56,606 bases of DNA from Candidatus Korobacteraceae bacterium. GTDB lineage: Bacteria; Acidobacteriota; Terriglobia; Terriglobales; Acidobacteriaceae. Below the pieces are notes generated by a model that made no database searches, was not told the origin of the DNA, and saw only the letters and a list, made by a program, of their open reading frames with translations. Each line of letters begins with the position of its first letter. Within the stretch, counting starts at the first letter, position 1. The position numbers and the translations under genes are program-made. Below, piece after piece: positions 20,186 to 47,417 of the stretch. The stretch covers positions 1-56,606 of the forward strand of contig JBEKQY010000004.1 in the NCBI GenBank assembly GCA_049519235.1, read 5' to 3'.

Positions 20186-20219
20186 GGGGCAGCGTCATCC
20201 GTGATGCTCTCTATGGTGA

Positions 20220-20299
20220 GGAGCAGCTAACGCGGTGAAGTTGCTCCTCACCATTCAAGACTAATCGCCGCCACAACCTATGACCAAAAGGAGGTCACT
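20220..20299 (+). promoter_or_regulatory. conserved ~80-nt leader module, copy 3 (hairpin 20220-20247, 8-bp stem, 12-nt loop)
   Basis: Differs from copy 2 at about 4 positions by my count. Ends in AAAGGAGGTCACT-ATG. Confidence 0.65.
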
Positions 20300-22479: not shown

Positions 22480-22486
22480 GAGCTCG

Positions 22487-24300: not shown

Positions 24301-24404
24301 GTGAAGCTGCGCCGCCAGTAATCTGGCGAGCTAATGAGATCTCATCTTGGCTTCATAACTGCGGCACGCGCCCTGCCGTAATCTTGCTTGCTGTAGAGAC
24401 GCCT

Positions 24405-27302: not shown

Positions 27303-27593
27303 GCCCGTTTGCCAAGATCACACTTAAGTGCCAGCAGTAGCTTGATGGGAAGTTCCCTAGAAATCTGCTGCAAGACATTGCATCTCGAATATTTAGCAGG
27401 TTTGCAACATGTTGAAATCGCTACACCGACCTTTGGAAACAAAAGTGCCGAAGCTCACCAGATTCTTAACCTAAGTTCATACGCCCACGGGCCGACGCTA
27501 TTGTAATTTGCTGTAAAGGGCTCCTATCCCGGGCTGGGCCGAATCCAGGGAATCCAAAGGTCTTAAGTTCTGAAAAACAGAGGAGGGCAAGCC

Positions 27594-28439
27594 ATGCTCT
27601 GCCGCGTCGCAACATGGAGACTGCTTTTCATTTTGGCGGTTATGGTGCTGCTTACAGCCATTACCGCAAACGCACAGACCTGTACCGCGCCAGCGTGTGT
27701 TGCGGGAGGTTCCGACTACTTCCAGACGACCGCCGCGTCCGTTACCCTCCCCAGCGGCGAGGGCTTCGGCACGACGCCGATTCCCCTCACCTCACTGCCC
27801 AACGATAATGAACCTGGGGCACACCTGGTGGACACGATTATTCAGCGCCAGGAGGATACCGGAGTCGAGCCGACGGGCGGCACTGCTGTCCCAAGCCTGG
27901 CTTTGGATCTTTCTTTGATAGCGACGGGGGTCCTCAACACCAACAATGGCCATCGATACAACATATATGTCACCCTCGATCCGACGGCCCTGCCCGTTAA
28001 CGCGGGGATGATTACGATCAACGGGAACGCCAGCGGTGGCACTTACACTACCTGCACCAACGTATATCTTCAGGTGAGTTTCATGCAGACCGACGGAAGC
28101 GACGACCCTATTGCGCCATTCACGCCGGGAGCGGCATGCACGCTGGGTAATACCTCACCATGCACGAACACAACGACGCCGTATTCGTGGAGTTCGACGT
28201 CCCCGACTGGAGCGTATCTGTTGAGCGCTGTTTACCCGGCTTTCAACGCCAACCAGCACACCGGCGCACCCGTGAACTATGTGCCGGATTTCTATCTCAC
28301 ACAGACCACGACGCAGTCGTGCACCGTTAACGCCTTCACGTTTAGTCAAACGACGCAACTAGCGCAGGCGTCGTCAACCGCGCCGGAGTCGAAACCAGCG
28401 CAAAACAACGGGAGATCGGAAGGGAAAGCGCGGAAATAA
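27594..28439 (+). CDS. secreted hypothetical protein, paralogue A (281 aa)
   Basis: Signal peptide 'LLFILAVMVLLTAITANAQ'. Shares 'GSDY', 'DTIIQRQ(E/Q)D', 'NNGH(R/H)Y.IY.TLDP.ALP.N.G.(M)TI.G..SGGT(Y/F)' with the next ORF. Confidence 0.65.
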   Translation: MLCRVATWRLLFILAVMVLLTAITANAQTCTAPACVAGGSDYFQTTAASVTLPSGEGFGTTPIPLTSLPNDNEPGAHLVDTIIQRQEDTGVEPTGGTAVPSLALDLSLIATGVLNTNNGHRYNIYVTLDPTALPVNAGMITINGNASGGTYTTCTNVYLQVSFMQTDGSDDPIAPFTPGAACTLGNTSPCTNTTTPYSWSSTSPTGAYLLSAVYPAFNANQHTGAPVNYVPDFYLTQTTTQSCTVNAFTFSQTTQLAQASSTAPESKPAQNNGRSEGKARK

Positions 28440-28594
28440 GTTAACCCATAATCCGCCTCACACATGGTATGCCTCGCGGACTAATGCTTTGTAAGGTTCT
28501 TTCGTTAGAAGGCGGCGTCCCGAGGTTCTGGTTCCAGGGATCAAAGGGTCAATCGGTTGGTGAATTTCGAAACGACCTAGAGGAGGAGCGAGCC

Positions 28595-29602
28595 ATGCTC
28601 TGCCGTATTGCAAGATTGCTTGTTAGTTTGGCGGTTGTGGTGTTGTTGATCGCCCTTACCGCGGGCGCGCAGGACTATGTTGCCCCGGGTAGTGACTATC
28701 TGCTGACGGGTCCTGGTACCAGTTTTGACATGAGCGCAAGAGGATTCTCGACCAACGTGGTGTTCAAATCAAATCCCAGTTCAGTCGTTTGTACGAACTT
28801 GAACACCTGCACCAGTGACACGATTATCCAGCGCCAGCAGGACGCAGACCTCACGAATCCGGCTCCCATCCCCATTCAGATTATATATCTTTCTCTGTGT
28901 TCCCAAGATCCAGCGGGTGGGCCGTGTTACGGGGTGCCCAACAACAATGGCCACCACTACGTCATATACGCTACCCTCGATCCCAGGGCACTCCCCAATA
29001 ACACGGGGACGATGACGATTACGGGGGATACCAGCGGCGGTACTTTCAGCTCGAGCTTCACAGTGAATTTGCTGGCAACATTTGTAACCACGGATGGTGG
29101 GCCGAACCTGACGCCATTTCGCGGCAGTTTCACGGTGCAATCGAGCGAATCACCACCACCAGCGTGGACCTCGACTGAGCCGATGAGCCCGCCGTACTTC
29201 GCGATAACGGCTCCCTATCCAGCTCAGCAAGCCAACGTGAACACCAACTTCCCGCGGCAGCCTCAGCCTATGTTTGTGAATTTCTTCCCTGTGACCTTTT
29301 TTAGGGAGTTACACTTCGGCGGGGGGGTTTGTCATGTTGTCTCACTTGCGTGCGTTGGCGGGATTCTAGTTGCGAGGCCGCCAAACATCGCCCTTTTCTG
29401 GTTGATTTGCTTCTTCCTTCAAAATAACAACGGCTCTTTGGATCAAATCGCCGACTTCATGCTGCCGCCGGATGATTTTGGGGCCATATACACCCAGAAT
29501 GCGTCGTGGGACAGGGTGCAGGAGCCAGCCGGCCACGCGCCAGTGGGGGCGAGCGGCGCGGCCCGATTGCCACATATGAGCACTGCGGCGGTGAGGAATT
29601 AG
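28595..29602 (+). CDS. secreted hypothetical protein, paralogue B (335 aa), with a unique hydrophobic C-terminal extension
   Basis: ATG 28595 lies in the same GAGGAGG..GCCATGCTCTGCCG context as paralogue A. Signal peptide 'LLVSLAVVVLLIALTAGAQ'. The ORF-track start at 28469 is not preferred. Confidence 0.6.
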   Translation: MLCRIARLLVSLAVVVLLIALTAGAQDYVAPGSDYLLTGPGTSFDMSARGFSTNVVFKSNPSSVVCTNLNTCTSDTIIQRQQDADLTNPAPIPIQIIYLSLCSQDPAGGPCYGVPNNNGHHYVIYATLDPRALPNNTGTMTITGDTSGGTFSSSFTVNLLATFVTTDGGPNLTPFRGSFTVQSSESPPPAWTSTEPMSPPYFAITAPYPAQQANVNTNFPRQPQPMFVNFFPVTFFRELHFGGGVCHVVSLACVGGILVARPPNIALFWLICFFLQNNNGSLDQIADFMLPPDDFGAIYTQNASWDRVQEPAGHAPVGASGAARLPHMSTAAVRN

Positions 29603-29696
29603 CAGTTCGGAATCAAAGGTGTGTTGCCGGCGGTTCGAAATCCGGACCGCCGGTTTTGGTCAGTGATCGCTGTGGGATGAGAGGGAGCACGCCGCC

Positions 29697-30689
29697 GTGT
29701 TGGAGCCCCAGACCGCTTACTCAGCGCCGGTCAGTTCTCCCCACCAACACGTCCTAAAGCCTGGCAGATCCAACTCCGGCTGGCTCACCCGCTGGATGCG
29801 CCTGGACGAAAGCGAAGCCTCATTTTCCGTTCGCTCCTTCCAGGCTAGCTCCAAAGATGCGCAACGGCGCCTGGAGCTGATCGGTCGCACCTTCATCACG
29901 GGTTACAATTCGGCGATCGAGCGCAAGGGCCTCGATGAAATCAGCGCCGTCCTGGACGAAGTACAGCCGGAGTTGCGTGGTTTTGCGTTCGAAGGCGCAT
30001 CGATGGCGTCTTCACTTCTGGATCTTTTGTCGCTTCGGTCTTCGCGATTCATGGGCCTATTGCGCGGCCCGGGACAACAATACATCCATTTGTGCTGGGT
30101 CGGTACTGGATGGGCCTGTGCGCGGCTGAAGCTGTTGCACGGCCGCTTCCGCCGTAAGTTTTTTCCGCATGATCCCTTGTTGAGCACGCTGGCTTACGAT
30201 GGCTGGGGTTTCCACGAAGGATACTTTTCCTCCCAGCGCTACCTGCGTAGGCAAGCGCCCGCCCCTGGAATTCTGAAGGGAGATACCAGACGGATTTTCG
30301 ACCAGGGCTTTGGACGCAGCTTGTGGTTTGTAGGTGGAGCAAGAGTGACAGCCATTAAGAGCATGATCGCGCCGTATCCCGTCGAACGGCAGGCAGACAT
30401 GTGGAGCGGCGTTGGCCTGGCGTGCGCTTATGCGGGATGCGCCGGGGGCAGCGATCTGGAGATGCTGCTTACTATCGACAATTCGTTCCTGCCTCACCTT
30501 AGGCAGGGTGTCGCATTTGCCGCCAAGGCGCGGGTGCATTCCGGGAATGTGATCGAAGATACATATCTCGCCGCGCAGCTCCTTTGCGGAACTTCACCCG
30601 AGAAGTTAGCCGAAGTGACGGACGCCGCACAACGGCGAACCAACGATTACATGAGCTGGAGAGCCGAACTCCAGCGCTATTTCACGTGA
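29697..30689 (+). CDS. UnbL / E3-type enediyne-cassette protein (DUF1702-like)
   Basis: Assigned mainly by size (~330 aa) and its position as first gene of the E3-E4-E5-E-E10 order. GTG start follows GGGATGAGAGGGA. I recall E3/UnbL being the DUF1702 family, but cannot verify this here. Confidence 0.55.
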   Translation: MLEPQTAYSAPVSSPHQHVLKPGRSNSGWLTRWMRLDESEASFSVRSFQASSKDAQRRLELIGRTFITGYNSAIERKGLDEISAVLDEVQPELRGFAFEGASMASSLLDLLSLRSSRFMGLLRGPGQQYIHLCWVGTGWACARLKLLHGRFRRKFFPHDPLLSTLAYDGWGFHEGYFSSQRYLRRQAPAPGILKGDTRRIFDQGFGRSLWFVGGARVTAIKSMIAPYPVERQADMWSGVGLACAYAGCAGGSDLEMLLTIDNSFLPHLRQGVAFAAKARVHSGNVIEDTYLAAQLLCGTSPEKLAEVTDAAQRRTNDYMSWRAELQRYFT

Positions 30690-30700
30690 GAAGGGCTAAG

Positions 30701-32692
30701 ATGGAGCCTTCCAGGCATCCGCAGGCCAAGAAGATTGCCGCCACGGTCATCGCCCTCGGGGCGTTGGGCGTGGCTTGGATGTATAGACCTGCTCCGGTCA
30801 ATGCACATACCATCCCCGGCCTCAAGGACAGATTTTCTTTTCGCGCCTACGACCTTCCAACTCTGCCCGGCCCACAGCAAACCACCCGGCAAGTAAACGG
30901 CTCGCTCGCCCATATCGACGGATGGATTTCGTCGGTCGGAGCGGCTGTGGCGATCAACGATATCGATGGCGACGGACTGGCCAATGACATTTGCTATGTC
31001 GATACGCGAACCGACCAGGTCATTGTTGCCCCGGCGCCCGGCACCCCGGCACGTTACGCTCCATTCGCTCTCGATCCTTCTCCTGTCAAAGTCGATAAGC
31101 GCACCACGGCTCCCATGGGCTGTTTGCCAGGAGACTTCGATGAAGATGGCAGGATCGATCTGCTGGTTTACTACTGGGGACGCACGCCCATTGTCTTTCT
31201 GAACCACTACGACCGTAGTAAACAACATGAGCTGAATGCTCAGTCATTCCAGGCGGTCGATCTGGTACCGGGTGGGGAGAGATGGTTTACGAATGCGGCA
31301 GTACTCGCCGACCTGGATGGCGATGGCCATGTTGACATCGTCATTGGGAATTATTTTCCTGACGGCGCCGATATCCTGGATCCGGACAACCCTCAGCCGC
31401 AACACATGCAGTCGTCTATGTCACACGCTTATAACGGCGGCGACAAACATTTTCTGTTGTGGCAGCCACCCGCTCCCGGCGCGCCAATCCGATTTCGCGA
31501 TGTAGTGCCGGAATTCCTGGTTGGAAATTACCGGCCAGTAAGCGCCACTTTGCAGGACGAGATTTTGCATGGCTGGACGCTTGCGCTTGGAGCGGCTGAC
31601 CTGAATGGCGATCTTTTGCCTGAACTCTATATCGCCAACGATTTCGGTCCCGACCGCCTGCTGGAGAATCTCTCATCGCCCGGCCATTTGAAGTTCCGGC
31701 TGCTGGAGGGAGCGAGAACGTTTTTTACCCCGAAGTCAAAGGTGCTTGGCCACGATTCTTTTAAGGGCATGGGGGTGGATTTCGCGAATCTCAAGGGTGA
31801 TGGCCGTCTGGACATATTAGTCGGCAATATCACCGACGAATTCGCGTTAGAAGAGAGCAATTTCGCCTTTGTCCCCACCGATAACAGTTTGACCGACCAG
31901 CGCGGCATTGCCCATTACCAAGATGAGAGTGAAGAACTTGGGATATCGCGCACCGGCTGGACCTGGGACGTCAAGGCGGCAGACTTCGACAACGAGGGCG
32001 CGCCCCAGATTGTGCTGGCGACAGGATTTCTGAACTCAGCTACCGCCCGAGAAGGTATCGACCGTTGGCCCGAGCTGCATGAGATCGCGATGGGCAACGA
32101 CGTTCTTCTTCAGTACCCATGGGCTTGGCATAGGTTTAAGGACAGCGACGCCCTTAGCTCGCACAACCATACGCCGTTTTTTGTAATGAATCGCGACGGA
32201 ACCTACAGCGACATTTCGCAGGAAATCGGTCTGGAACACATCTATCCGGGAAGAGGCATTGCGGTCGCGGACGTGAGGGGAGACGGCCTTCTCGACTTCG
32301 CAATCGCCAATCAGTGGGGCACGTCCGTGTTCTACCAGAATACGAGCGTCTCGCATGGAGCCGCCCTCACGCTAAGGCTCTTATTGCCAACCCACACGGG
32401 AGTAACGAATTTCCGGATCGAGAACGGATCCAGCGACAGTATTAGCGGGTCTCCCGCCATCGGAGCCACCGCAAGCCTACGTCTTCCCAATGGCCGGGTC
32501 CTGGTTGATCAGGTGAATGGAGGAAATGGGCATTCTGGAAAGAATAGCTTCGAGATTCACTTTGGACTGGGTCGTCAGGACCCAAGCCAGCGGTACCAAG
32601 TAATCCTGAATTGGCGCGATCGCGGCGGCAAAACCAATACGCACAGCGTGTCTCTGGTTGCCGGACGATACAGCGTTCTTCTGGGGCAATAG
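30701..32692 (+). CDS. UnbV / E4-type protein: FG-GAP (VCBS) repeats plus C-terminal ASPIC/UnbV domain
   Basis: Repeats 'DIDGDGLANDICYVD', 'DFDEDGRIDLLVYYWG', 'DLDGDGHVDIVIGNYF', 'ADLNGDLLPELYIANDFGPDRLLEN', 'NLKGDGRLDILVGN', 'VRGDGLLDFAIANQWG'. C-terminal 'NGGNGHSGKNSFEIHFGLG' is the ASPIC/UnbV hallmark. ATG 30701 follows GAGAAGGG. Confidence 0.8.
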   Translation: MEPSRHPQAKKIAATVIALGALGVAWMYRPAPVNAHTIPGLKDRFSFRAYDLPTLPGPQQTTRQVNGSLAHIDGWISSVGAAVAINDIDGDGLANDICYVDTRTDQVIVAPAPGTPARYAPFALDPSPVKVDKRTTAPMGCLPGDFDEDGRIDLLVYYWGRTPIVFLNHYDRSKQHELNAQSFQAVDLVPGGERWFTNAAVLADLDGDGHVDIVIGNYFPDGADILDPDNPQPQHMQSSMSHAYNGGDKHFLLWQPPAPGAPIRFRDVVPEFLVGNYRPVSATLQDEILHGWTLALGAADLNGDLLPELYIANDFGPDRLLENLSSPGHLKFRLLEGARTFFTPKSKVLGHDSFKGMGVDFANLKGDGRLDILVGNITDEFALEESNFAFVPTDNSLTDQRGIAHYQDESEELGISRTGWTWDVKAADFDNEGAPQIVLATGFLNSATAREGIDRWPELHEIAMGNDVLLQYPWAWHRFKDSDALSSHNHTPFFVMNRDGTYSDISQEIGLEHIYPGRGIAVADVRGDGLLDFAIANQWGTSVFYQNTSVSHGAALTLRLLLPTHTGVTNFRIENGSSDSISGSPAIGATASLRLPNGRVLVDQVNGGNGHSGKNSFEIHFGLGRQDPSQRYQVILNWRDRGGKTNTHSVSLVAGRYSVLLGQ

Positions 32693-32695
32693 CAC

Positions 32696-33616
32696 ATGGA
32701 GGGGGCGCAGAAGATGGATACCCGATTGGCCGCGCTGAGGCGGTTCGCCATCGCGATAACCGTACTCAATATCCTGGGCCATAGCTTCCTCGGCTTTGAA
32801 CAGTCCCCAGCGCAGCCGGTTTTTTCTGTGCTGCTGGCGTGGTCCATCGAACTTGTCCTGGAAACTGTGCAGTCGTGGGGGGATGGCCGAAAACCTCGAT
32901 TCTTAGGAGGCGGGATCGTCGGCTTCGTGGACTTTCTTTTGCCCGCCCAAATCACTGGATTGGCTGTCGCCATGCTGTTGTACGCCAACGACAGGTTGCT
33001 CCCAATTCTGTTTGCGACGACCATCGCTATGTGTTCTAAGGCGATCTTTACCATCAAGCAGGGCCCTGCCATACGTCACTTCTTTAATCCATCGAATTTT
33101 GGCATCACTCTTACTCTTCTGTTGTTTCCCTCGGTAGGCATTACACCGCCGTATATGTTCACCGAAGGGTTGGGAGTCGCCGGCAGCCTGATTCTTCCTT
33201 TGTTCATTACTGTCAGTGGTACCTACATCAACACCAAGCTAACTGGCCGACTGCCGCTGCTGCTGGCTTGGATCAGCGGCTTCACGCTGCAGGCGTTAGT
33301 GCGGCACTATCTTTTCGGCACCAGCTTGCTACCCATGCTGGGGGTCATGACCGGCGTAACTTTCGTTCTCTATACGTTCTATATGATCACCGACCCGGCA
33401 ACGACACCGGCCGCGGTTCGAGGGCAAGTGGCTTTCGGCCTTTCCGTCGGGCTGCTCTACGGAGTTCTTGTCATGTCTCACATCGTGTTCGGAATGTTCT
33501 TCGCGCTTACGATTGTGTGCTTCAGCCGGGGCATGGCGCTGTTGCTGTTGCCGCTGTTGGAGAAAGCCAAGAGCCCGGCGCGGGAAGAGCAGCGAGTGTT
33601 GGCAGCGGTAAGGTGA
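32696..33616 (+). CDS. UnbU / E5-type integral membrane protein
   Basis: ~8 TM helices, 306 aa, located directly between the UnbV-type gene and the PKS as in enediyne minimal cassettes. Confidence 0.6.
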   Translation: MEGAQKMDTRLAALRRFAIAITVLNILGHSFLGFEQSPAQPVFSVLLAWSIELVLETVQSWGDGRKPRFLGGGIVGFVDFLLPAQITGLAVAMLLYANDRLLPILFATTIAMCSKAIFTIKQGPAIRHFFNPSNFGITLTLLLFPSVGITPPYMFTEGLGVAGSLILPLFITVSGTYINTKLTGRLPLLLAWISGFTLQALVRHYLFGTSLLPMLGVMTGVTFVLYTFYMITDPATTPAAVRGQVAFGLSVGLLYGVLVMSHIVFGMFFALTIVCFSRGMALLLLPLLEKAKSPAREEQRVLAAVR

Positions 33617-33619
33617 GCC

Positions 33620-36600
33620 ATGGCCGATGCAATCGCGATCATCGGGCTAGGATGCGAATACCCAGACGCTTCTACGCCCGTAGAGTTGTGGCACAGCGTT
33701 CTGGCACAACGGCGGAGTTTTCGCCGCATTCCCCGGGAAAGACTTGATCTGGAAGCGTACTGGTCGCCGGACCGAACGGACTGTGATCGCACATACTGCA
33801 CCAAGGCGGCGCTGCTCAAGAACTTTTCCTTTGACCGCGCAGCTTTTGGCATATCGGGCGCTACCTTTCGCGCCACTGATCTTGCGCATTGGCTGGCGCT
33901 GTCCACTGCCGCCAAGGCACTGAACGAGGCATTTGCCGACAGCGAGATCGTGCATTGGCGGGAAACGACCGGCGTATTCGTCGGAAATTCGCTGACCGGG
34001 GAGTTTTCCCGCGCCAGTTGTCTTCGCGTCCGCTGGCCTTTTGTCGAGAGTGTTCTGGAAGGACAACTGCGAGCACAAGGCTGGTCCGACAGCGACGCTG
34101 CGGACTTTTTGCGGCGATGCGAAGAACAGTACAAGGCGCACTTTGAGCCGTTTTCCGAGGACACTCTTCCCGGTGGACTTTCCAACACCATCGCTGGCCG
34201 GATCTGCAATTTCTTCGATCTGAAGGGCGGCGGATATGTGCTGGACGGCGCCTGCGCGTCGTCGCTGCTGGCCGTCATCAACGGTTGTTCCGCTCTGGAG
34301 TCGCGCGACCTGAATGTTGCCATCTGTGGCGGAGTTGATCTCAGCCTGGATCCGTTCGAGCTGGTCGGCTTTGCCCGCAACGGCGCGCTCGCCGCCGATG
34401 AAATGAGGGTCTTCGACAGCAACCCGACCGGGTTCCTGCCTGGAGAAGGCTGCGGATTTGTGGTGATGATGCGCCTCCAGGATGCGCTGGCCGCAGGCTG
34501 CAATGTTCGCGGAGTCATTCGCGGCTGGGGCATTTCGTCTGACGGGCAAGGGGGCATGACCCGGCCCGAGCCGCAAGGACAGTTGCTGGCGCTGACGCGC
34601 GCCTATCGGCGGGCGGGCCTCGATTCATCCCAGGTTCCGTATTTCGAGGCCCATGGTACGGGGACGGCGGCCGGGGATGACGCCGAACTCACCGCGCTCG
34701 CCGAAGCCGTGCGATCTCCATCGGGGAGCCCCGCCGTCGTCAGCTCCATCAAGGCCATCATCGGACACACCAAGGCGGCAGCGGGAATCGCCGGGTTGAT
34801 GAAAGCCATGATGGCTTTGGAATTCGGGACACTGCCTCCTACGACTGGTTGCATTACTCCACACCGAATTCTGACCGAGAAGCCGGAACTGCTGCGGGCG
34901 CAATCGGAGTCTTCGTCGTGGCCGCAGGACCGCGAATTGCTTGCCGGAGTTAGCGCCATGGGCTTTGGCGGAATCAACACCCATGTGGTGTTGCAGAGCG
35001 CCGGCGCCGTTCCACGGCAAATTCCGGCCTCCATGCGAGCTGCATGCCATTCGTCTCAAGACGCGGAGCTGTTCCTGTTTTCTGCGGACACCTCGGCGGC
35101 ACTGCAAGCGGCAGTCGATTCCGTAGTCACGAAGGCGGCATCGCTATCGGCCGCGGAATTGACGGACTTGAGCGCTTACCTGATTCGCCGCACAGGGCGC
35201 GGCCAGTGGAAAGCCGCGTTGGTCGCCCGCACTGCCGAAGAATTGAGCCGGGAAGCAGCAGGGCTAGCGAGCTGGATCGGCGCCGGAATAACGAATCGAT
35301 ATCAATACAACGACGGCATCTTCTTGTCGAGCGAAAACAGGCGCCTGCGGCTCTGCTATCTGTTTCCTGGGCAGGGAGTATCCTATTGCGCGGACGATTG
35401 GCCGCTCTACAGCAGACTGGTGGGCGATGGAGCGCTGACCGAATTCGCGCCTCTGTCCGCGGACGCTGGAGAAACTGAGAAAGCTCAGGTCGGGATCTCG
35501 CTGCAGTGCCTGAAGCAGTTGCGGGTGCTCTCCTCGTTGGCAATTCAGGCCGACGCTGCCATTGGCCATAGCGTAGGCGAACTCGTGGCGTTGTGTTGGT
35601 CCGGCACCATTGCTGAATCGCAATTGCTGGAGATGGTGCAGGCTCGAGGCCGCGTCATGCATCACTGCTCGCCTTCGGGCGGAGCGATGATCGCGGTGAT
35701 GGCGAGCGCTGCCAGCGTCAACGGATTTCTTCCCGCCGAGACCGTCATCGCGGCGCTCAACGGAAGCCACATCGTCGTATCCGGGCCTGTAGAGCTGATT
35801 GCCAAGGCAGAGGCTATCTGCCTAGAGAAAAACATCCATACCGTACGGCTCCCCGTGAAGTATGCATTTCATTCGCCGGCCTTCGCGCCGGCCGCAAAGT
35901 TGTTTGCGGCTGAACTTGAACATCATGCCTTTCAAAAGCCCACGAGAACAGTTTTTTCGACCGTGACCGGAAACGTATTTCGGGAAGATGCCGACCTCGT
36001 CCGTCACCTATCAGAACAGATCATCAACCCCGTCCGGTTCGAATCTGCGGTTCAGCAGGCTTCGGCAGTGGTCGACCTGTTCCTGGAAGTGGGCTCGCCG
36101 GGCGTGCTGCGTGATATGGTGCAAGCTGTCTCAGAGGTCCCGGTAATTAGCTGGACTCCTCGCAGCGACACAGGCTTGCTCACCACGGCTGCTGTCCTGC
36201 ACGTGTCTGGATCTCCAGTCGATCTTCGGCGCCTGGTGACAACGCGCTTTGTCCGCGACTTCTCTCCTGACGCGCGATTCGATTTTCTCCGGAATCCCTG
36301 CGAATCCCTGGAGGATTCCCAGCGCGAGCGGAAGGCCTGCCGCGTACCTCAAGCTGTTCGTCCTGAAGAACCGGTTGTTGCTGCATCCATAATCCCGGCG
36401 GGGATGCAGACTGGCAATGTTCGGCAAGCGGCCTTAGACAAATTGCTGGAGATTGTCTCAAGGAAGACAGAGTTACCGAAGGACCGGCTACAGCCCTCGA
36501 TGAACCTGTTGACCGATTTGCATTTGAGCTCCATTACGGTGGCGCAGATCGCGATCGAAACCGCAAGGGCATTGGGTAGGAAGCCGCTTCTGGCGCCTAC

Positions 36601-39364
36601 GAGTGCTGCCGGAAAGACTCTCGAACAGCTCGCGGCCACCATTGCGGAATCTGCCCAGGCAGGCGAAGCGGAGGGACCGCTTCCGGCGATACGCGGCATA
36701 GATAGCTGGGTGGGAATGGCAGTGGTGGAGGACCAGCCGCTGCCGCTTACTGCTCCCGCCATCGCAGCGCAGGTCCGCGGGCACTGGGATGTGCTTGGCG
36801 CGTTATCGCCCAACGCAAAGCGCATTGCGCAAGGTGTCGTAGGAGAGCTTTCAGGAGACGGCGTTCTGCTGCTCTACGATTCCACAACATCACTCGCGCT
36901 GCTGCTGAGTGCCGTTCAGCAGGCTCATCTCAAGCACTGTGCCTTGCTGGTCGTCTGCGATTCTTTAGCGCCGTCATTGTCGGGATTCGCTCGCAGTGTA
37001 TTCCTTGAAGGTGGCGCAAGCCGAGCACTTGTGGTGCGGCTGGATTTCGCCGATCCGGGTGCGCCGCAATGCATCCTTCAGGAATTCGGCAATCCCGCTC
37101 GCTTCGTAGAGAGCAGCTATATGTCCGGGCAGCGATACGAGCCCGTTGTACGGTTGCTGGAACCGGGCACAACCGAGGCGTCACCTTTCTTCACAGCGGA
37201 AGATTGCCTTCTAGTTCTGGGAGGCGGCAAGGGCATTGCAGCGGAATGTGCGTTTGAACTTGCCCGCAACTACGGCTTATCACTCGCTCTGGTGGGACGC
37301 TCTGACCCTTCCGCCGATAGTGAGCTAAGGAACAATCTCGACCGGCTGTCTCATGCCGGAATTCGCTTCCGCTATGAGCGCGGGGACGTCACCTCCGAGG
37401 AATTTTGCACTACCATCCCCGCTCTGGAAGCCGAGATGGGCCCCATCACCGCGATCCTGCACGCTGCCGGACTGAACCAGCCGAAGTCGCTGGCAGCCTT
37501 GACGGCGGCCGACCTGGAAGCGGCGCTTGCGCCGAAGCTTGCCCCGCTGGCGTCACTGCAAGGCGTGCTGGGCTTCGATCGTCTCAAGGCAGTCATCGCG
37601 TTCGGTTCGATCATTGCCCGTATGGGCCTCGCCGGTGAGGCCCATTATGCTCTTGCCAACGAACGGCTGCGTGAACAAATGGAAGAGCTTTCCACGCGCT
37701 ACACCAATTGCCGGTTTGGCTGCCTGGAATGGTCGGTGTGGTCTGGGCTGGGCATGGGGGAGCGGCTGGCCAGAGTCGATGAACTGGCACGGCAAGGAGT
37801 TGAGCCGTTAACGCCAGAGATGGGCACCAGAGCGCTTATCGATTTCCTGCAATCAGAATCTCCGGGCACGTCGGTCATTGTCACCTCGCGGTTCCCGTCC
37901 ATGCCGACTCTGAATGTCAGCAGGCCGGCCATCAAACCGTATCGCTTTCTGGAACGCACGCTTGTGGACTATCCGCATATCGAACTGGTGGCGGAGGCCG
38001 ACTTGGCGATACAAAAGGATTTGTACCTTAACGACCACAAGCTGGACGGAACGGTGCTTTTCCCCGCCGCTCTGGGTTTAGAAGCAATGGCCCAGGCGGC
38101 TACCGCGCTATTTAGAAAGAGCGGTGCCTTAACTTTATCCGACATTCGATTTGAGTCGCCCATTACGGTTGATGCTGCCAACGGAACGACGATCAGAATA
38201 GTGGCCCTCAGGCGGGATTTCGCCTCGGCTGACATCGTCATTCGCTCTAGCCAAACCGCCTTCCAGGTTGACCACTTCCGGGCGACCTGCTCGCTACAGG
38301 AAGGACCCAGGCCGCGCCCGCACAATCATCCGGTTCCTGCAACGCCGCTAATCGAGGGCGACGATCTATATGGCTTCATGCTTTTTCAACGTGGGCGCTT
38401 TCAAGCGGTGAAGGGATACCTCCATCTGGATTCGCGGTCCTGCACTGCGTTGCTCTCGCCCTCTGAACAGCAGTGGTTCAGTCAATTTCTGCCGCAGTCC
38501 TTTGTGCTTTTGAATCCAGCGTTTGCGGATGCGGCCATGCACGCCATACAAGCATGCATACCCCACCGAAAGCTCGCTCCCACAGCGATAAAGCAAATTA
38601 TCGCGCACTCTTCTTCCTGCAAATTGGAGACCGCGGTCTGTAAAGCGGTCGAGCGCGCTTCCAACCAGGACGAGTTTGTCTACGACCTCGACATCCAGGA
38701 TCAAGACGGAAATCCGCTGCAGTCATGGAAGGGACTCACCCTTCGCGCGGTGGCGGAAAACGATGCGACTTTGCTGAGTACCCCGGCCTTCATCGTGAAC
38801 ATGCTGGAGCGGCGGTGGCGCGAGATTACCGGGGACGACGGGGCAACTGTCTCGCTGCGGGAACAGGGCTCGGATCGCGTGCAGGTCTTAGAACCGCGCC
38901 CGCGGCGTGCCGATGGCAAACCGGCGCAATCCGGGCGGACCGCGGCACGCGCTTGGTCCGGCCGTACCCTGTTGGAACTCCGGTCTTCGCTTGACAGCAG
39001 TTGCGATCTGGAACGAGTCGTCACGCGCGACGAAGCCACCTGGCGCGACCTGCTCGGCGGGCCAGGATTTGAATCGGCGCTTTTCTTTTCTCAAGAGCAC
39101 GGTGAAGACCTGGACTTGTCGGCTACGCGCGCATGGTGTCTCGCCGAGTGCCTGAAGAAGATCGGAAAACCGGCATCCGCTCCGGTCACGTTGGCTGCCT
39201 GTCTGCCCGGCCGCTGGATGGTCATGCGGTGCGGCGGCTGCACGCTTTGCACGGTTCCAATTGTGGCTTCGGGAAATCGAATGGTCGCGGCATTTGCTGC
39301 CCGCTCACGGGCTACCCGCCACAACCTTCCGGCCGAGGTGGCACGTGCCTTCGTTTCTCTATGA
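33620..39364 (+). CDS. iterative type I polyketide synthase of the enediyne (PKSE) architecture: KS-AT-ACP-KR-DH-PPTase, 1914 aa
   Basis: KS: 'LDGACASSLLAV' (Cys ~aa 212), 'EAHGTGTAAGD', 'GHTKAAAG'. AT: 'AIGHSVGELVAL'. ACP-like: 'LTDLHLSSITVAQIAIE' (~nt 36510-36560). KR Rossmann: 'LVLGGGKGIAAECAFELA'. DH hotdog: 'HKLDGTVLFPAALGLE'. C-terminal PPTase-like: 'RAWCLAECLKKIGK'. The length is typical of PKSE. Confidence 0.85.
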   Translation: MADAIAIIGLGCEYPDASTPVELWHSVLAQRRSFRRIPRERLDLEAYWSPDRTDCDRTYCTKAALLKNFSFDRAAFGISGATFRATDLAHWLALSTAAKALNEAFADSEIVHWRETTGVFVGNSLTGEFSRASCLRVRWPFVESVLEGQLRAQGWSDSDAADFLRRCEEQYKAHFEPFSEDTLPGGLSNTIAGRICNFFDLKGGGYVLDGACASSLLAVINGCSALESRDLNVAICGGVDLSLDPFELVGFARNGALAADEMRVFDSNPTGFLPGEGCGFVVMMRLQDALAAGCNVRGVIRGWGISSDGQGGMTRPEPQGQLLALTRAYRRAGLDSSQVPYFEAHGTGTAAGDDAELTALAEAVRSPSGSPAVVSSIKAIIGHTKAAAGIAGLMKAMMALEFGTLPPTTGCITPHRILTEKPELLRAQSESSSWPQDRELLAGVSAMGFGGINTHVVLQSAGAVPRQIPASMRAACHSSQDAELFLFSADTSAALQAAVDSVVTKAASLSAAELTDLSAYLIRRTGRGQWKAALVARTAEELSREAAGLASWIGAGITNRYQYNDGIFLSSENRRLRLCYLFPGQGVSYCADDWPLYSRLVGDGALTEFAPLSADAGETEKAQVGISLQCLKQLRVLSSLAIQADAAIGHSVGELVALCWSGTIAESQLLEMVQARGRVMHHCSPSGGAMIAVMASAASVNGFLPAETVIAALNGSHIVVSGPVELIAKAEAICLEKNIHTVRLPVKYAFHSPAFAPAAKLFAAELEHHAFQKPTRTVFSTVTGNVFREDADLVRHLSEQIINPVRFESAVQQASAVVDLFLEVGSPGVLRDMVQAVSEVPVISWTPRSDTGLLTTAAVLHVSGSPVDLRRLVTTRFVRDFSPDARFDFLRNPCESLEDSQRERKACRVPQAVRPEEPVVAASIIPAGMQTGNVRQAALDKLLEIVSRKTELPKDRLQPSMNLLTDLHLSSITVAQIAIETARALGRKPLLAPTSAAGKTLEQLAATIAESAQAGEAEGPLPAIRGIDSWVGMAVVEDQPLPLTAPAIAAQVRGHWDVLGALSPNAKRIAQGVVGELSGDGVLLLYDSTTSLALLLSAVQQAHLKHCALLVVCDSLAPSLSGFARSVFLEGGASRALVVRLDFADPGAPQCILQEFGNPARFVESSYMSGQRYEPVVRLLEPGTTEASPFFTAEDCLLVLGGGKGIAAECAFELARNYGLSLALVGRSDPSADSELRNNLDRLSHAGIRFRYERGDVTSEEFCTTIPALEAEMGPITAILHAAGLNQPKSLAALTAADLEAALAPKLAPLASLQGVLGFDRLKAVIAFGSIIARMGLAGEAHYALANERLREQMEELSTRYTNCRFGCLEWSVWSGLGMGERLARVDELARQGVEPLTPEMGTRALIDFLQSESPGTSVIVTSRFPSMPTLNVSRPAIKPYRFLERTLVDYPHIELVAEADLAIQKDLYLNDHKLDGTVLFPAALGLEAMAQAATALFRKSGALTLSDIRFESPITVDAANGTTIRIVALRRDFASADIVIRSSQTAFQVDHFRATCSLQEGPRPRPHNHPVPATPLIEGDDLYGFMLFQRGRFQAVKGYLHLDSRSCTALLSPSEQQWFSQFLPQSFVLLNPAFADAAMHAIQACIPHRKLAPTAIKQIIAHSSSCKLETAVCKAVERASNQDEFVYDLDIQDQDGNPLQSWKGLTLRAVAENDATLLSTPAFIVNMLERRWREITGDDGATVSLREQGSDRVQVLEPRPRRADGKPAQSGRTAARAWSGRTLLELRSSLDSSCDLERVVTRDEATWRDLLGGPGFESALFFSQEHGEDLDLSATRAWCLAECLKKIGKPASAPVTLAACLPGRWMVMRCGGCTLCTVPIVASGNRMVAAFAARSRATRHNLPAEVARAFVSL

Positions 39365-39800
39365 ACACACCGTTTCGTTTGAGGAAACCAATGTCCTGGG
39401 AAATGTATATTTCACTAATTTCCTGAGGTGGCAAGGTATTTGCCGTGAGCTGTTTCTGAAGGAGCACGCTCCACAGCTACTATCGCAGCTCCCGGACACG
39501 AAGATTGCGACCTTGCACTGTTCGTGCTCCTACTATTGGGAGCTCTATGCCTTTGATCGAGTCACGGTTGAGATGTATCTTGGCAGTGCAGGCGAATCCG
39601 GCAAACCAGTTGAATCAGATGTACTCTGGATTTGCTTCAAGTACTGGAAGGACGCGGTTCCCGATAGATTGCTAGTAGGGGAAGGGGAACAGAAACTTGC
39701 TTTTATGTACTCGACGAATGGAAGCAAGTGGGACAGGGGTCCTATACCGGACTCTTTGCAAAACGCATTGGTGCCCTTTGGATTTACCAAGCTGCGCTGA
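39345..39800 (+). CDS. hotdog-fold (4HBT-type) thioesterase, TEBC / E10-like
   Basis: 'YEHTVSFEETNVLGNVYFTNFLRWQG' is the 4-hydroxybenzoyl-CoA-thioesterase-type N-terminus. The start is uncertain: GTG 39345 is proposed, overlapping the PKS end by 20 nt, whereas the ORF track opens at 39261. Confidence 0.7.
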   Translation: MPSFLYEHTVSFEETNVLGNVYFTNFLRWQGICRELFLKEHAPQLLSQLPDTKIATLHCSCSYYWELYAFDRVTVEMYLGSAGESGKPVESDVLWICFKYWKDAVPDRLLVGEGEQKLAFMYSTNGSKWDRGPIPDSLQNALVPFGFTKLR

Positions 39801-39815
39801 ACTCGGCGTTCGACA

Positions 39816-40439
39816 ATGAGCCGCCACGATCATATTGAAGAAAGTAGCGGGGACGACAACCATTCGGTTCCGCACCCTAAGCCTAAAATTCGCATCATTG
39901 AAGACCAGGATGCGACCGGCGAGACGGCGGCAGCCTACGACTTCTGGCGAACTGCTTCGGGCCGGCAACAGGTGCCGGGCATCATCAAGTGTTTTGGTGC
40001 ACGGCCTGACTTCCTGCGCCAGGTTGTGGAATTCTCCAACACCATCCATTTCTCCGACGGCCACCTTTGTCGCCGCCACAAGGAAATGATCGCCTGTTAT
40101 GTGTCGTATCTGAATCATTGTCCCTATTGAATGGACAGCCACGGATACTTCCTGCGTGTTCAGGGAGCCAGCGAGCAATGCGTAGCGGCGATTTTGGAAG
40201 GAAAGCTGGAAGAGGCAGGCCTGACTGCGGCCGAGTATGCCCTTCTGCAATATGCAGAACTGATAACCCGCGACGCTGCTCGCTCGTCCGCTGCTGATGT
40301 CGATCGCTTGCGCGGTTGTGGTTGGACAGAAGAACAGATCTCGGAGGCGGTCTATGTGATCGCGATGTTCGCTTTCTTCAATCGCATCGCCGATGCGTTT
40401 GGCATCCCATCCCAGAATTACCTGTTGTCGGGGCGATAA
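39816..40439 (+). CDS. AhpD/carboxymuconolactone-decarboxylase-family peroxidase-related protein, read through in-frame TGA 40128-40130 (candidate selenocysteine; C-P-Y-U-M-D-S-H)
   Basis: ORFs 39816..40130 and 40131..40439 are in the same frame, separated only by TGA. Joined, they give '..YVSYLNHCPY[TGA]MDSHGYFL..', i.e. the family CxxCxxxH motif with TGA at the second Cys. The combined length of ~207 aa is typical. Confidence 0.55.
40143..40169 (+). promoter_or_regulatory. candidate bacterial SECIS-like stem-loop downstream of the in-frame TGA
   Basis: Upper stem 40148-40154 (CTTCCTG) pairs with 40161-40167 (CAGGGAG): 7 bp including one G.U. 6-nt loop CGTGTT, with GU ~26 nt after the TGA. 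Possible 2-bp lower stem GG 40143-44 / CC 40168-69 across a 3-nt bulge. Folded by hand only. Confidence 0.3.
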
Positions 40440-40642
40440 ACCGTACGTCGACAAACCAAGTATTGTGTTCATCCTGCGGTACGTGATCCTCGGGGGCAGG
40501 ATGTGCTTGCGCCTGGCAAGTCTCAAAGCCGGGTCCGCAGAGTATTTTCCCAGAACCTGTTTCTGGTCTCGTTGGCCGATCAATTGCCTGTTGTTTTCGT
40601 GAACTGGGCCACTACGAATGGACTTGGGGTTCGTCGGCGCCC

Positions 40643-41062
40643 TCACCTACGGCTTAGAGGCGAATGAGGAATGATGATTCTCCGTCGTCCAAACAGCACT
40701 GCGTCGAGCGAGAACGCGCCGGGGCCAAGGAGCGCGATCGCCACATCGATGATGATTACGTTGAGGATCAATGGATTGCCGCGGAGTGAATGGATTGGAG
40801 ACGTCATAACCCAACGACGTATAATAGCACCAGTAAGAACAGCCCCAAGTATGGCAGCAGTCCTGGTCAAGATGCCCACGATCAGTGACGCACCAACTAC
40901 CAGCGCGAGCAAGCCAAGAACGAAACTGCTCAGGCTCGGATCGTTCGCGTCAGAGATAGACGGAACTGTGTAGACCACAAGGGCCGCACCGACCGCGATT
41001 CGCAGCAGCAGCAACCCCGCGCCGGGAGCTCTACCCGGAAATCCAGAATGTAGCCTCGCCAC
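40643..41062 (-). CDS. DoxX-like small membrane protein
   Basis: 139 aa, four hydrophobic helices, and a 'LLLLRIAVGAALVVY' N-terminal helix typical of DoxX-type proteins. Assignment by pattern only. Confidence 0.5.
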   Translation of the reverse strand: MARLHSGFPGRAPGAGLLLLRIAVGAALVVYTVPSISDANDPSLSSFVLGLLALVVGASLIVGILTRTAAILGAVLTGAIIRRWVMTSPIHSLRGNPLILNVIIIDVAIALLGPGAFSLDAVLFGRRRIIIPHSPLSRR

Positions 41063-41825: not shown

Positions 41826-44800
41826 TCACTCTTTGGGCACGGAAATATCGCTCTTGGGCTTGGCAACCAACCAGGGGGTCAGCCATCGCCACAAGGATTT
41901 GGACGTCGTGGTTTCGAACGCCACCTTACCAGGCACGGTCAGCTGAACTTCAGTTCCGGCCCCTGGGCGGCTCAAAAGATTTAGTTTCGCGCCGATTCTC
42001 TCCGCTCGCTCCCGCATGTTCGAGAGCCCCCAATGACCTTCGCGTCCGGTTTGAAGCATTTTCGCGTCGATGCCCGATCCGTTATCCCGCACTGTGATAG
42101 TCAGGGTGCGGGCAGCGTACTCGATTTCGACTGCGATGCGGGAGGCGTTTGCGTGGCGGAACGCGTTAAGGATCGCCTCACGCGCGATGCGGCAGACTTC
42201 TTCGCGAATCACCGGATGTAACGTTCTGGGCTTGCCTTCCACAACAATCCGGAAGTCAGGCGGCGTTTGCGAGGCAAATTCCTCTTGAACGCGCGCCAGC
42301 ACCTGCTCCAGATCATTACCGTCGGAACCAGGTAAGCGCAGGCTGCGTATCGCAGCCCGACCTTCTTCACTCACCTGCTTCATCAGAGCAAGAACGCGCT
42401 GCACCAGCGGCTTTGCCGGCGAATCCGACGGCAAACGGTCGTTGGCGACGTCCAGTTGCATGTAAGCGCTGACGAAACCTTGCAGAAGAGTGTCATGCAG
42501 GTCGCGAGCAATCCGTTCGCGTTCCGCAAGACGTTCTTCCAGCCTCGTCTGCATGCGCGCCGCGACCCGCCGCAGGCGAAGCCGCAAGAATAACCAGAGC
42601 AGAAATGCCAAGATAGCACCGCACAATACTCGAAACCATGCGGTTTGGTAGTAGGCCGGCAAGATCGTGAAGCTCATCGTCGCGCCCGTCTCATTCCACA
42701 CTCCGTCATTGTTGCTGGCGATGACATGGAATCGATAGGAACCAGGCGCAAGATCAGTGTAGAAAGCTTGCCGGCGATCATGAGGATCCTGCCAATCGCG
42801 ATCGCGACCCTCCAACTGGTAGTGGAAGCGTACCTTCTGCGGGACTGTAAGGCTGAGGGCGGTGTAGTCAATTTCAAGATCTCGCGCTAAGGCGGGGAGT
42901 TGCAAATCTCCTGTCATCCCATAGGCTTTATGGTCGGCAATGACTTGCTCAATATGCACGGGCGGCGCCACATCGTTGTGGTGCAGACGACTCGGATCAA
43001 TTTCCTGCAGAATCGTCTGGTTCGCAAACCAGAGCTTGCCGTCAATCGAGCGGGAGGCAGTCGGGCGGAAATGGGTTATGCCCGTCTGAGCGCCGTCGAA
43101 TGCGTCGAGCAGTAGTGTCTTAACTGGGTGTGCAGGTTGCTGCCACCAGGTTTCGAGTTCGGAGCGAGCGATGGCGACATAACCGCACGCAGCGTCCAGC
43201 CACAAAGAACCGCGGTCGTCAGCCACGACTGTATTGATAGAGTCGCAGGGTAGACCGTTGCGGGAGTCGAGCCTCTGGGTCCGGCTCGCCTTCCAACGAA
43301 GCAAACCGTTGCCCGTTGCAGCCCATAGTGAGCCATCGGAATCGACAAGCAGGTTATTGATCGCACCAGAGCTTGGAGATGGAGCGGTCACGACCGTTTC
43401 GATCCGCCCTTGCCGGTATCGGGCGAGGTCGCCGTTGAGAAGTCCCAGCCAGATGCCGCCGGCTGAGTCAGCGGCCAAGGACTCTGCCCGTGGAACTCTC
43501 GGCGGAGAGATTTCCTCCTGGACAGCGAAATTGTGGATGCGAAGAAGAGCCGGAGTCGTTACCGCTGCCCAAATATCATGATCCTGATCTTCGGTGATTG
43601 CTACCACAACTCCCAAGGGTTTTCCGTTCGGCTCTTTGACCAATCGAAATCGGCCTTGCTCGTAGACCGTCAAGCCGCCATCAATTCCCACCCACAGCCG
43701 GCCGGAATGATCCTCGAACAGCGACGTCACCAGGCGGCCCGGTAATCCGTTGGCCTTGGTTATGGCGGACAGCTTGCCTTGACGCCAGAAATCGAGGGCC
43801 CCCACATTTGCGATCCATACCGTCCCGTCGTTGGCGGCGAGCACAGACTGCACGCTTTCGGTCGTCAGGCCTTCCCGCTTCGAAACCGTTGCTACCGGGA
43901 TATCGCGAAAGCGGTCGATGCCCTTCGTCGTAACAACCCACAGGTCGCCTTCCCGATCTTCATAGAAGCCGCTGACATTGTCGCTGGAGAGGCCATCGGA
44001 GCTGCCAAAGCGATCTACCTTGTCCTTATAGATCCGGAAGAGTTGGTTATTATCGGTTCCAACCCAGAGTCCACCATCGTGGTCGAGTAATAAGGCACTG
44101 ACTTTCACGCTGTCGCCATTGAATCCAGGTACAACAGAGTCCTTCCATGCTCCTCGTTCGAAGCGTTGCAACCCCAGTCCCTTTCCCGTCCACGCAGTGC
44201 CCACCCAAAGCGCGCCGTCCGGTTCAGCGGCTATCGCACTCACTCCTTGCAGGCCTTTGGCTCGTTCCAATTGTTTGGGAAGGTAGGCGTAGGCTTTCTC
44301 CGAGCCAGCATTCCACGAGCAGATTCCAGTCGAGCTGCCCACCCACACATTGCCAGAAGGGTCTCGTGCTATCGCCTGTACATAGAGGAAGGGAATTCCA
44401 TCCGACGGTCCGTAGCAACGCACTGGGCCGGAACCAGTGATCTTGCAAAGGCCGCCTTGCTGGTCTCGCACTCCGGAACGAACGATCCAGACCGTGCCTT
44501 GGGGATCCTGCAAAATGGATTCAACGTAGCCTGATGCAGCGGGGTAATCGACAAGGGTCCCATCCTTCCAGTGTGCCAGGCCGCGAACGGTTCCTATCCA
44601 GAGGCTGCCATCGCTGGCACCCAAGAGTGAGGAAATCCTGCGACTCGGAAGGCGTTTGCCTACGGGCGGTATCCACGGAACGACGCGAACTCCATCGAAG
44701 CGGACCAGACCAGCCTCGGTGCCGATCCAGAGGTATCCATCCGTGGTCTGCGTGATGGCGTGAGGAGTTCCGCTGAAGTCTCCGTCCTGAGTCCGCCAAG

Positions 44801-47365: not shown

Positions 47366-47417
47366 CGCCTAAGCAAATGCATTCATCCAGGATCACAACA
47401 TCGAAAGGAGATTAAAG

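Follow-up and report, generated by a model that had tools for sequence, protein, structure and literature searches.

Five adjoining genes in the window (the whole stretch of 56,606 nucleotides analysed here, from contig JBEKQY010000004.1 of a Candidatus Korobacteraceae bacterium) encode an enediyne-type polyketide synthase (PKS) together with the proteins E3, E4, E5 and E10 that accompany such synthases. Judged from sequence, the identity of the five proteins, their intactness and their linkage are firm. We hold, with slightly better than even confidence, that they form a functional minimal enediyne PKS cassette making a linear conjugated polyene or polyyne for export from the cell, and not a decorated cyclic enediyne.

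The original prediction had proposed a cassette in the order E3-E4-E5-E-E10, and all five open reading frames (ORFs) are present on the + strand, each matching the family named for it:

29697-30689, + strand: E3 (UnbL/SgcE3 type, DUF1702), 330 aa; PF08012 at E 3e-90, 302 bits against a cutoff of 25.
30701-32692 (ORF 30584-32692), + strand: E4 (UnbV/SgcE4 type, FG-GAP beta-propeller plus ASPIC/UnbV), from its Pfam domains and its match to SgcE4.
32696-33616, + strand: E5 (UnbU/SgcE5 type), a polytopic membrane protein of 306 aa, from its match to SgcE5 and its hydropathy.
33620-39364, + strand: the enediyne-type PKS (PKSE), an iterative type I synthase of 1914 aa with the domain order ketosynthase (KS), acyltransferase (AT), acyl carrier protein (ACP), ketoreductase (KR), dehydratase (DH) and phosphopantetheinyl transferase (PPTase), from Pfam, alignment with SgcE and the tree described below.
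39345-39800, + strand: the E10 thioesterase (TE), a hot-dog protein of the CalE7/SgcE10/DynE7 family, 151 aa, with a GTG start.

The distances between neighbouring genes of the cassette range from -20 to +11 nt, and the genes, clustered in this way, are translationally coupled and could be co-transcribed. As a reference we used the C-1027 cluster on the Streptomyces globisporus plasmid SGLP1, which was located by tblastn, and compared the proteins pairwise. The five C-1027 counterparts (SgcE3, SgcE4, SgcE5, SgcE and SgcE10) align over their full length with 37-48% identity. E3 matches SgcE3 with 37% identity across 298 aa and SgcE2 with 38%. E4 aligns with SgcE4 along 676 aa (43% identity) and contains four FG-GAP_3 stretches (PF13517), an FG-GAP repeat (PF01839) and a C-terminal UnbV_ASPIC domain (PF07593), all above cutoff. 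We revised its start, most likely the ATG at 30701, which is preceded by a GAGAAGGG ribosome-binding site and gives a protein of 663 aa as in relatives; from this start the N terminus forms a hydrophobic signal or anchor. E5 aligns with SgcE5 along 297 aa (48% identity) and has about 7-8 predicted hydrophobic segments. In Pfam and NCBIfam it has only a weak, sub-cutoff resemblance to RnfD/NqrB; its homologues on plasmids carry the NCBI name 'enediyne biosynthesis protein UnbU'. The membership of the ORFs at 29697 and 32696 in the E3 and E5 families, which the original prediction had treated as a possible point of failure, is thus clear for both (DUF1702; SgcE3, SgcE5 and UnbU-named homologues). 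Searches of PDB sequences with E3, E4 and E5 returned no relatives.

The synthase aligns with SgcE over 1925 aa, or 98% of its length, at 39.8% identity, the PPTase domain included. Pfam recognises the KS, KS-C, KS-AT linker, AT and KR domains as well as both halves of the PKS DH domain, while the PP-binding (ACP) match is weak and below cutoff. When the protein was aligned with SgcE and nine other PKSEs, the catalytic residues were found to be kept throughout: the KS Cys in DGACASS and the His residues in HGTGT and GHTKAAAG, the AT motif GHSVG (GHSxG), the ACP Ser in DLHLSSITV, the KR motif GGGKGIAAECA with its Tyr, the DH motif HxxxGxxxxP, and the C-terminal PPTase signatures CDLE (CDxE), RRADGKP (R-x-DGKP) and ECLKK. 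The AT domain finds the AT domain of DynE8 as its top PDB match. A tblastn search of plasmids gave a bimodal outcome, with PKSE genes at 91-99% query coverage, 37-40% identity and approximately 1000-1120 bits, and other type I PKSs matching in the KS-AT half only, at 26-32% identity and 210-280 bits.

Two further features of the AT domain emerged from these alignments. The substrate motif (PKSE residues ~748-752) reads YAFHS in the window's clade as opposed to HAFHS in all other aligned PKSEs, and in one related locus, L002 (related loci carry L numbers here), GYSLG replaces GHSxG around residues 649-653.

The thioesterase is a 4HBT_2 hot-dog protein whose best PDB matches are CalE7 (1e-27), SgcE10 (3e-26) and DynE7 (3e-21), and it is 40% identical to SgcE10 over 144 aa. 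With its GTG start at 39345 it shares 20 nt with the end of the PKSE gene, an arrangement also found in relatives. Asn19 and Arg37 of CalE7 both have conserved counterparts in it, and the Arg is invariant among the 58 homologues compared; Arg37 of CalE7 is reportedly catalytic. We also considered CalE7 Tyr29 as a required residue and set it aside as uninformative, since the window has Phe there and the position varies over the 58 homologues (His in 40, Tyr in 9, Phe in 6). Relative to L001, an 86%-identical relative, the ratios of nonsynonymous to synonymous substitution rates (dN/dS) are 0.05 for E5, 0.16 for PKSE and 0.10 for TE, which indicates that the cassette genes are under purifying selection.

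Within the PKSE family the window's synthase stands apart. SgcE is 43-49% identical to the mainstream acidobacterial and cyanobacterial PKSEs, which are 50-61% identical among themselves; the window's PKSE shares no more than 38-41% identity with any of these. We built a neighbour-joining tree from 909 KS-AT columns of 57 sequences (100 bootstraps) with three cyanobacterial non-PKSE outgroups and a single experimentally verified reference, PfaA and HglE references not being part of the sampling. In this tree the window, L001, L002 and L087 form one clade with 100% bootstrap support, sister to all other sampled PKSEs including SgcE, and the whole PKSE clade has 92% support. By identity, L094 and L106 also fall into the window's clade (PKSE 57-59%, E3 73-77%). 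On these comparisons the window's PKSE is a deep outlier of the family, without assignment to the 9- or 10-membered class. Elsewhere in the same KS-AT tree, SgcE is not basal but nests inside the acidobacterial, cyanobacterial and planctomycete diversity of PKSEs. The PKSE of Sinorhizobium meliloti pSymA (L004), 33-35% identical to all others, groups with the outgroups, possibly through long-branch attraction; the locus keeps the E3-E4-E5-E-E10 order.

The host had been described as seemingly non-actinomycete, in agreement with the window's phosphoenolpyruvate carboxykinase, which is 86-89% identical to proteins of Terriglobales/Terriglobia metagenome-assembled genomes (MAGs); judged by this protein, it is an uncultured, soil-type Terriglobia acidobacterium. 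The cassette is canonical and its occurrence outside actinomycetes is already published. The E10/E/E5/E4/E3 cassette is the sole part common to all enediyne clusters, and 54 of 61 GenBank clusters lie in Actinomycetales, the remaining 7 elsewhere (Shen et al. 2015, PMC4480864); non-actinobacterial 'enediyne' KS lineages, without known product, have also been described (Singh et al., mSystems 2023, PMC10308959). Searching protein sequences, we obtained more than 7000 PKSE homologues, mostly 41-43% identical, many of which JGI labels 'enediyne polyketide synthase'. A scan of species-representative genomes with a profile made from an E5 alignment found a confirmed E5 relative in at least 589 genomes. 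The best 80 of these matches are almost all non-actinomycete MAGs, mostly of Acidobacteriota (Thermoanaerobaculia, Pyrinomonadaceae, Holophagales, Terriglobia), and Cyanobacteria, Planctomycetota, Nitrospirota, Myxococcota and others are also among the matches listed. The window's own genome is not among them, the top E5 match listed being 62% identical.

Parts of the cassette also occur without a PKSE. On the Serratia proteamaculans plasmid NZ_MT039191 (L005), positions 10233-14876 encode E3, E4 and E5 homologues without any PKSE, next to genes for an ACP, a KS, a short-chain dehydrogenase/reductase, a KS-like protein, an FAD-oxidoreductase and a glycosyltransferase; L067 and L076 likewise have E4-E5 pairs and no PKSE. 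Possibly E3-E5 are a transferable unit able to serve other synthases as well.

To place the cassette among its companions, ORFs were called and clustered in 85 related loci and the window, many of the loci being cut by contig ends. Among the 85 loci, homologues were found of E3 in 69, E4 in 82, E5 in 85, PKSE in 76 and TE in 57, and the E3-E4-E5-E-E10 order is nearly universal. The commonest companion is an AraC regulator (28 loci), which is also part of the C-1027 cluster. An MMPL transporter is encoded in 16 loci, and a family of approximately 300 aa without assigned function, here called f5, lies divergently upstream of E3 in 20; the window has none of these three companions. Tailoring genes were sought by tblastn with the C-1027 proteins encoded around sgcE, namely the SgcE6 flavin reductase, the P450 (E7), DUF5987, the GMC oxidoreductase and TIGR03084. 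These accessory proteins of the 9-membered core (E6, E7, E8, E9 and E11 types) gave 0 matches in the 56.6-kb window and matches in only 0-2 other loci. Pfam scans of most neighbouring ORFs revealed no cyclase, epoxide hydrolase, glycosyltransferase/sugar or apoprotein-like genes, so the earlier statement that tailoring genes are lacking nearby holds.

As the window contains no accessory genes for building or decorating a 9-membered core, the end product is most likely a linear polyene or polyyne. In characterised systems, PKSE and TE release 1,3,5,7,9,11,13-pentadecaheptaene, for which the TE is required; this heptaene is an on-pathway intermediate for both enediyne classes, between which PKSEs and TEs are interchangeable (PMC9992847). 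By analogy with this family, the window's PKSE would phosphopantetheinylate its own ACP and build a conjugated polyene thioester iteratively from malonyl-CoA, and the hot-dog TE would release and decarboxylate the polyene to the same heptaene. Soluble E3, the exported beta-propeller E4 and membrane-bound E5 may then turn the polyene into more oxidised linear products (polyynes) at the cytoplasmic membrane, a step we put forward with less confidence. In actinomycetes the five-gene cassette alone reportedly yields iodoheptaene, diiodotetrayne and pentaynes. Gene linkage suggests that the product would leave the cell via an adjacent DevCAB-like tripartite ABC exporter, and two secreted proteins of a family here called f11, encoded between this exporter and E3, may bind or handle it outside the cell, although their proposed role is a guess from linkage.

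These neighbours belong to a longer array. All genes from 20903 to 40439 lie on the + strand, forming a 19.5-kb array of which the cassette is the 3' part. The neighbours named in the original prediction (the DevCAB-like exporter, the pair of secreted paralogues and the candidate selenoprotein) are all present, and outside the cassette the array comprises:

20903-21676, + strand: ABC importer permease 1 (BPD_transp_1-like), a 257-aa ORF, the first of the array; the homologue at the same place in L086 is annotated BPD_transp_1.
21676-22479, + strand: ABC importer ATPase, ABC_tran at E 1e-31; homologues adjoin cassettes in L026, L045 and L086.
22385-23245, + strand: ABC importer permease 2, BPD_transp_1 at E 3e-19; the true start is probably downstream of 22385.
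23200-24300, + strand: periplasmic substrate-binding protein of the SsuA/NMT1 (sulfonate/nitrate/taurine) type, NMT1_2 at E 3e-27.
24264-25523, + strand: DevC/MacB-like ABC exporter permease, FtsX plus MacB_PCD; the best NCBIfam model is devC at 119 bits, cutoff 290.
25516-26208, + strand: DevA-like exporter ATPase; the best NCBIfam model is heterocyst_DevA at 222 bits, cutoff 296; 78-79% identical in L086/L087.
26205-27302, + strand: DevB/HlyD-like membrane-fusion protein, HlyD_3 and HlyD_D23; heterocyst_DevB at 126.5 bits, cutoff 129; N-terminal transmembrane anchor.
27594-28439, + strand: first of the two secreted proteins of the unnamed f11 family (paralogue a), 281 aa, with a signal peptide and no Pfam/NCBIfam match.
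28595-29602 (ORF opens at 28469), + strand: second secreted f11 protein (paralogue b); translation likely begins at Met 28595, immediately ahead of the signal peptide.
39816-40439, + strand: AhpD/CMD-like 'peroxidase-related' gene, a candidate selenoprotein with an in-frame TGA at 40128-40130 (C-P-Y-U), 16 nt after TE.

The array is conserved in L086/L087, whose PKSEs are 60-61% identical to that of the window: both loci have the same order from the importer into PKSE, where they end. Identities are 44-66% for the importer, 79% for DevC, 78-79% for DevA and 78% for DevB, followed by 57% for paralogue a, 49% for paralogue b, 75-76% for E3, 66-67% for E4 and 73-74% for E5. L001 is co-linear with the window from E4 through the end of the AhpD-like gene, and L002 and L094 have the cassette with different flanks. 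The DevC-like permease is also 57% identical to a protein in L009, there encoded just downstream of the cassette. DevCAB-like genes adjoin cassettes in L009, L056 and L079 as well, and L044 ends in a partial DevC match; the evidence is weaker for L019 and L058, where it consists of ORF clustering and low-identity matches. In the layout common among acidobacteria, the exporter's position is taken by the MMPL transporter of the 16 loci mentioned above. The substrate-binding protein scores 120 bits with the SsuA_fam model, below its cutoff of 163, and is 63-66% identical in L086, while importer permease 2 is 45% identical to the homologues adjoining the L026 and L045 cassettes.

In four independent loci, of which two belong to the mainstream PKSE clade, an SsuA/NMT1-type importer lies a short way upstream of the cassette (window 20903-24300; L026 3753-6229; L045 849-3267; L086 3166-6678). 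The antisense ORF at 20617-21624 (- strand, 335 aa) was rejected as a shadow of the real + strand permease at 20903-21676. A scan of the array for promoters and terminators gave nothing above chance, with fewer sites than in shuffled sequences, and is uninformative.

The two f11 paralogues are 37% identical to each other and have the motifs GSDYFQT, TDTIIQR, VTLDP, GGTF, ANxHTG and DFF in common. Homologues of paralogue b occupy the same position in L086/L087 (49%) and in L106 (44%), where the f11 gene lies directly upstream of E3. An AlphaFold (AF2) model of paralogue a is all-beta (pLDDT 81.6, pTM 0.76), and a Foldseek search of the PDB with this model gave no match below E 0.76. We therefore found no support for f11 as a relative of enediyne apoproteins or of a known fold, as none of the 50 best-listed PDB matches is an apoprotein and none is significant. 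The family comprises 2137 representatives at E ≤ 1e-3 and has no Pfam or NCBIfam model. In L009, L044, L053, L060 and L079 its genes adjoin the cassette or are inserted in it, and in the cyanobacterial loci L036, L047 and L058 they stand between E4 and E5. The f11 profile also picks up f5 members at E 1e-15 to 1e-6, with shared motifs and a shared signal peptide, and the combined f11/f5 family adjoins 29 of the 86 cassettes (the 85 related loci and the window). Among f11 homologues on long contigs, two of three adjoin a cassette (P0122 and P0134), and the third (P0126) adjoins MacB-type permeases.

The AhpD-like gene downstream of TE is a candidate selenoprotein gene. The same in-frame TGA occurs in L001, the halves on both sides of it match PF02627, and the read-through protein, with U replaced by C, scores 101 bits with TIGR01926, above the cutoff of 81.8. 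Compared with L001, the stretches flanking the TGA have dN/dS values of 0.12 and 0.23, indicating purifying selection. The antisense ORF at 39672-40646 (- strand, 324 aa), with a dN/dS of 1.7 as opposed to 0.12-0.23 for the sense AhpD-like frame, was dismissed as a shadow ORF. A search for a selenocysteine insertion sequence (SECIS) downstream of the TGA found hairpins no stabler than those of shuffled sequences (z ~0), with the window and L001 differing from each other, and Rfam gave no SECIS element at the gathering threshold. In L002 and L106 the gene is absent downstream of TE.

Further observations concern the remainder of the window. A conserved leader of approximately 95 nt is present in three + strand copies at 18253-18348, 18834-18928 and 20211-20305, with a fourth copy in L001 at 8348-8443 (- strand). 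It contains a GAGGAGCAGC...GTTGCTCCTC hairpin, and its 3' end, AAGGAGGTCAnTATG, supplies the ribosome-binding site and start codon of three different ORFs. The leader matches no Rfam family; a cis-regulatory RNA is one possibility, a shared promoter-leader cassette another. A DUF3300/DUF2950 gene pair occupies 45371-48377 (+ strand), downstream of the gene for a Reg_prop/Y_Y_Y histidine kinase (41826-44960, - strand); neither the pair nor the kinase is conserved with the cassette in relatives. A borderline Rfam tRNA match was obtained at 52276-52337 (- strand), with 30 bits against a gathering score of 29.

Several points weigh against a linear, exported polyene or polyyne. The window's clade is sister to the other PKSEs and only 38-41% identical to them, so the chain length or the product could differ from that of SgcE. 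The chemistry of E3, E4 and E5 is not readable from sequence, and none of the three has a solved relative. The models for DevC, DevA and DevB all score below their curated cutoffs, though they rank first, and the linkage to f11 is not universal, as L002 and L094 have no f11 and L088 has f11 without a cassette. No product is known for any cassette outside actinomycetes (PMC10308959). Genes for cyclisation could also sit elsewhere in the genome. The original prediction had left the product open between an enediyne core and a simpler polyene or polyyne; we find this the right level of caution, the evidence leaning towards the simpler product without settling the matter.

The alternative that survives best, which we nevertheless consider rather improbable, is that the cassette makes a polyene or modified polyene that serves as an envelope lipid or pigment, photoprotective or antioxidant in the manner of aryl polyenes, with E3-E5 anchoring, transferring or oxidising it and no alkynes being formed. 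Such a role would suit the wide distribution of the cassette, with its more than 7000 PKSE homologues and at least 589 genomes with an E5 relative, mostly of Acidobacteriota, Cyanobacteria and Planctomycetota. It would also fit the usual partners of the cassette, which are lipid-type exporters (MMPL or DevCAB), the adjoining AhpD-like redox gene, and the Serratia plasmid on which E3-E4-E5 accompany a type II-like KS/ACP set in place of PKSE. All of this is context, however; the array encodes no glycosyl- or acyl-transferase for a complex lipid, and the same five genes are reportedly committed to alkyne products in actinomycetes (Gui et al. 2024).

Less probable still, in our estimate, is a genuine 9- or 10-membered cyclic enediyne core, for which the remaining steps would be spontaneous or carried out by genes elsewhere or by the f11 and AhpD-like neighbours. 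All characterised clusters that contain the cassette are enediyne producers (PMC4480864), the window's five proteins are intact and conserved, and the secreted f11 proteins could stabilise a product as apoproteins do. Against this stand the absence of any C-1027 core-accessory homologue from the 56.6-kb window and of almost any from the 85 related loci, the position of the window's PKSE outside the clade that contains SgcE, and the f11 fold search, with no apoprotein among the 50 best-listed matches and none of these significant; in addition, there is no report of an enediyne from these phyla (PMC10308959).

A decaying or silent remnant without a current product is very improbable: the AraC-type regulator that is the commonest companion is absent and no promoter or terminator signal rises above chance, but the ORFs are intact at the lengths of their homologues, all catalytic motifs are kept, dN/dS is 0.05-0.16 and the array is conserved in L086/L087 at 60% PKSE identity. 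Finally, a PKS of the polyunsaturated fatty acid (PUFA) or heterocyst-glycolipid type with a superficial enediyne resemblance, an outcome that the original prediction had named among those that would refute it and which the neighbouring DevCAB-like exporter, of the type that exports heterocyst glycolipids, might bring to mind, is effectively refuted, because the PfaA model (TIGR02813) reaches 425 bits in the KS region against a cutoff of 1010 and is confined to residues 5-590, whereas the protein is co-linear with SgcE along 98% of its length, PPTase included, has its best solved AT match in DynE8, shows the bimodal tblastn separation, falls into the PKSE clade (92%) away from the outgroups, and is flanked by E3, E4, E5 and a CalE7-type TE.

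Returning to the linear, exported polyene or polyyne, it is tempting to speculate that the 'enediyne' cassette of Acidobacteria and several other phyla is the core of a different, extracellular system, an idea that we regard, taken as a whole, as unlikely. In such a system a reactive C15 polyene or polyyne may be made at the membrane by PKSE, TE and E3-E5 and passed to a lipid-type exporter (DevCAB or MMPL), and the secreted, often PEP-CTERM-anchored all-beta f11/f5 proteins, as a dedicated family with a fold not described before, may capture, carry or chemically use it. A putative selenocysteine-containing AhpD-like redox protein and the SsuA-type importer may be further components in the window's lineage. 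If this were true, f11/f5 would be an independently evolved functional analogue of the chromoprotein apoproteins of actinomycetes.

Enediynes are among the most cytotoxic natural products and serve as payloads of antibody-drug conjugates. The five-gene cassette is far commoner outside actinomycetes than inside, and what is new here is a deep-branching PKSE clade, a conserved extended array and a secreted family without known fold that frequently adjoins cassettes and has so far gone unremarked. As a 19.5-kb one-strand array with a deep-branching PKSE and without tailoring genes, the locus is a compact test case for the product of a bare cassette. The candidate partners, f11/f5 and the DevCAB/MMPL exporters, are not counted within these clusters by current genome-mining pipelines.

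Compared with known systems, the C-1027 cluster has the same five protein families as the window, the same E3-E4-E5-PKSE order, and the same domain order and catalytic motifs in PKSE. It differs in that its TE lies 6.5 kb downstream, whereas that of the window directly follows PKSE, and in having a second DUF1702 gene (E2) as well as E6, E7, DUF5987, GMC, TIGR03084, AraC and StrR-like genes, which the window lacks. Its host is a Streptomyces; that of the window is an acidobacterium, whose PKSE branches outside the clade that contains SgcE. DevBCA/MacAB-type exporters likewise have their genes for permease (FtsX plus the MacB periplasmic domain), ATPase and HlyD-type adaptor side by side, but in the window the order is C-A-B, the array has no TolC-like gene and the host is not heterocyst-forming. 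Among PEP-CTERM (exosortase-sorted) proteins the relationship is divided: most f11 relatives end in a PEP-CTERM anchor (PF07589), whereas it is missing from both proteins of the window and from their nearest relatives; the all-beta domain itself, of approximately 230 aa, is without Pfam family or PDB fold match. With the AhpD-like/TIGR01926 family, which includes selenoprotein forms, the window's gene shares the CMD fold signature and a CxxC-type motif, with the TGA at the second Cys; only in the window and L001 does such a gene immediately follow an enediyne-type TE. The clusters of Singh et al. (PMC10308959), sampled here as L006-L085, have the same cassette in the same order and come from the same phyla (Acidobacteriota, Cyanobacteria, Planctomycetota and others), and against this common background the mainstream layout runs from families f13, f8 and f5 through the cassette to AraC and MMPL, whereas that of the window runs from the importer through DevCAB and the two f11 genes into the cassette.

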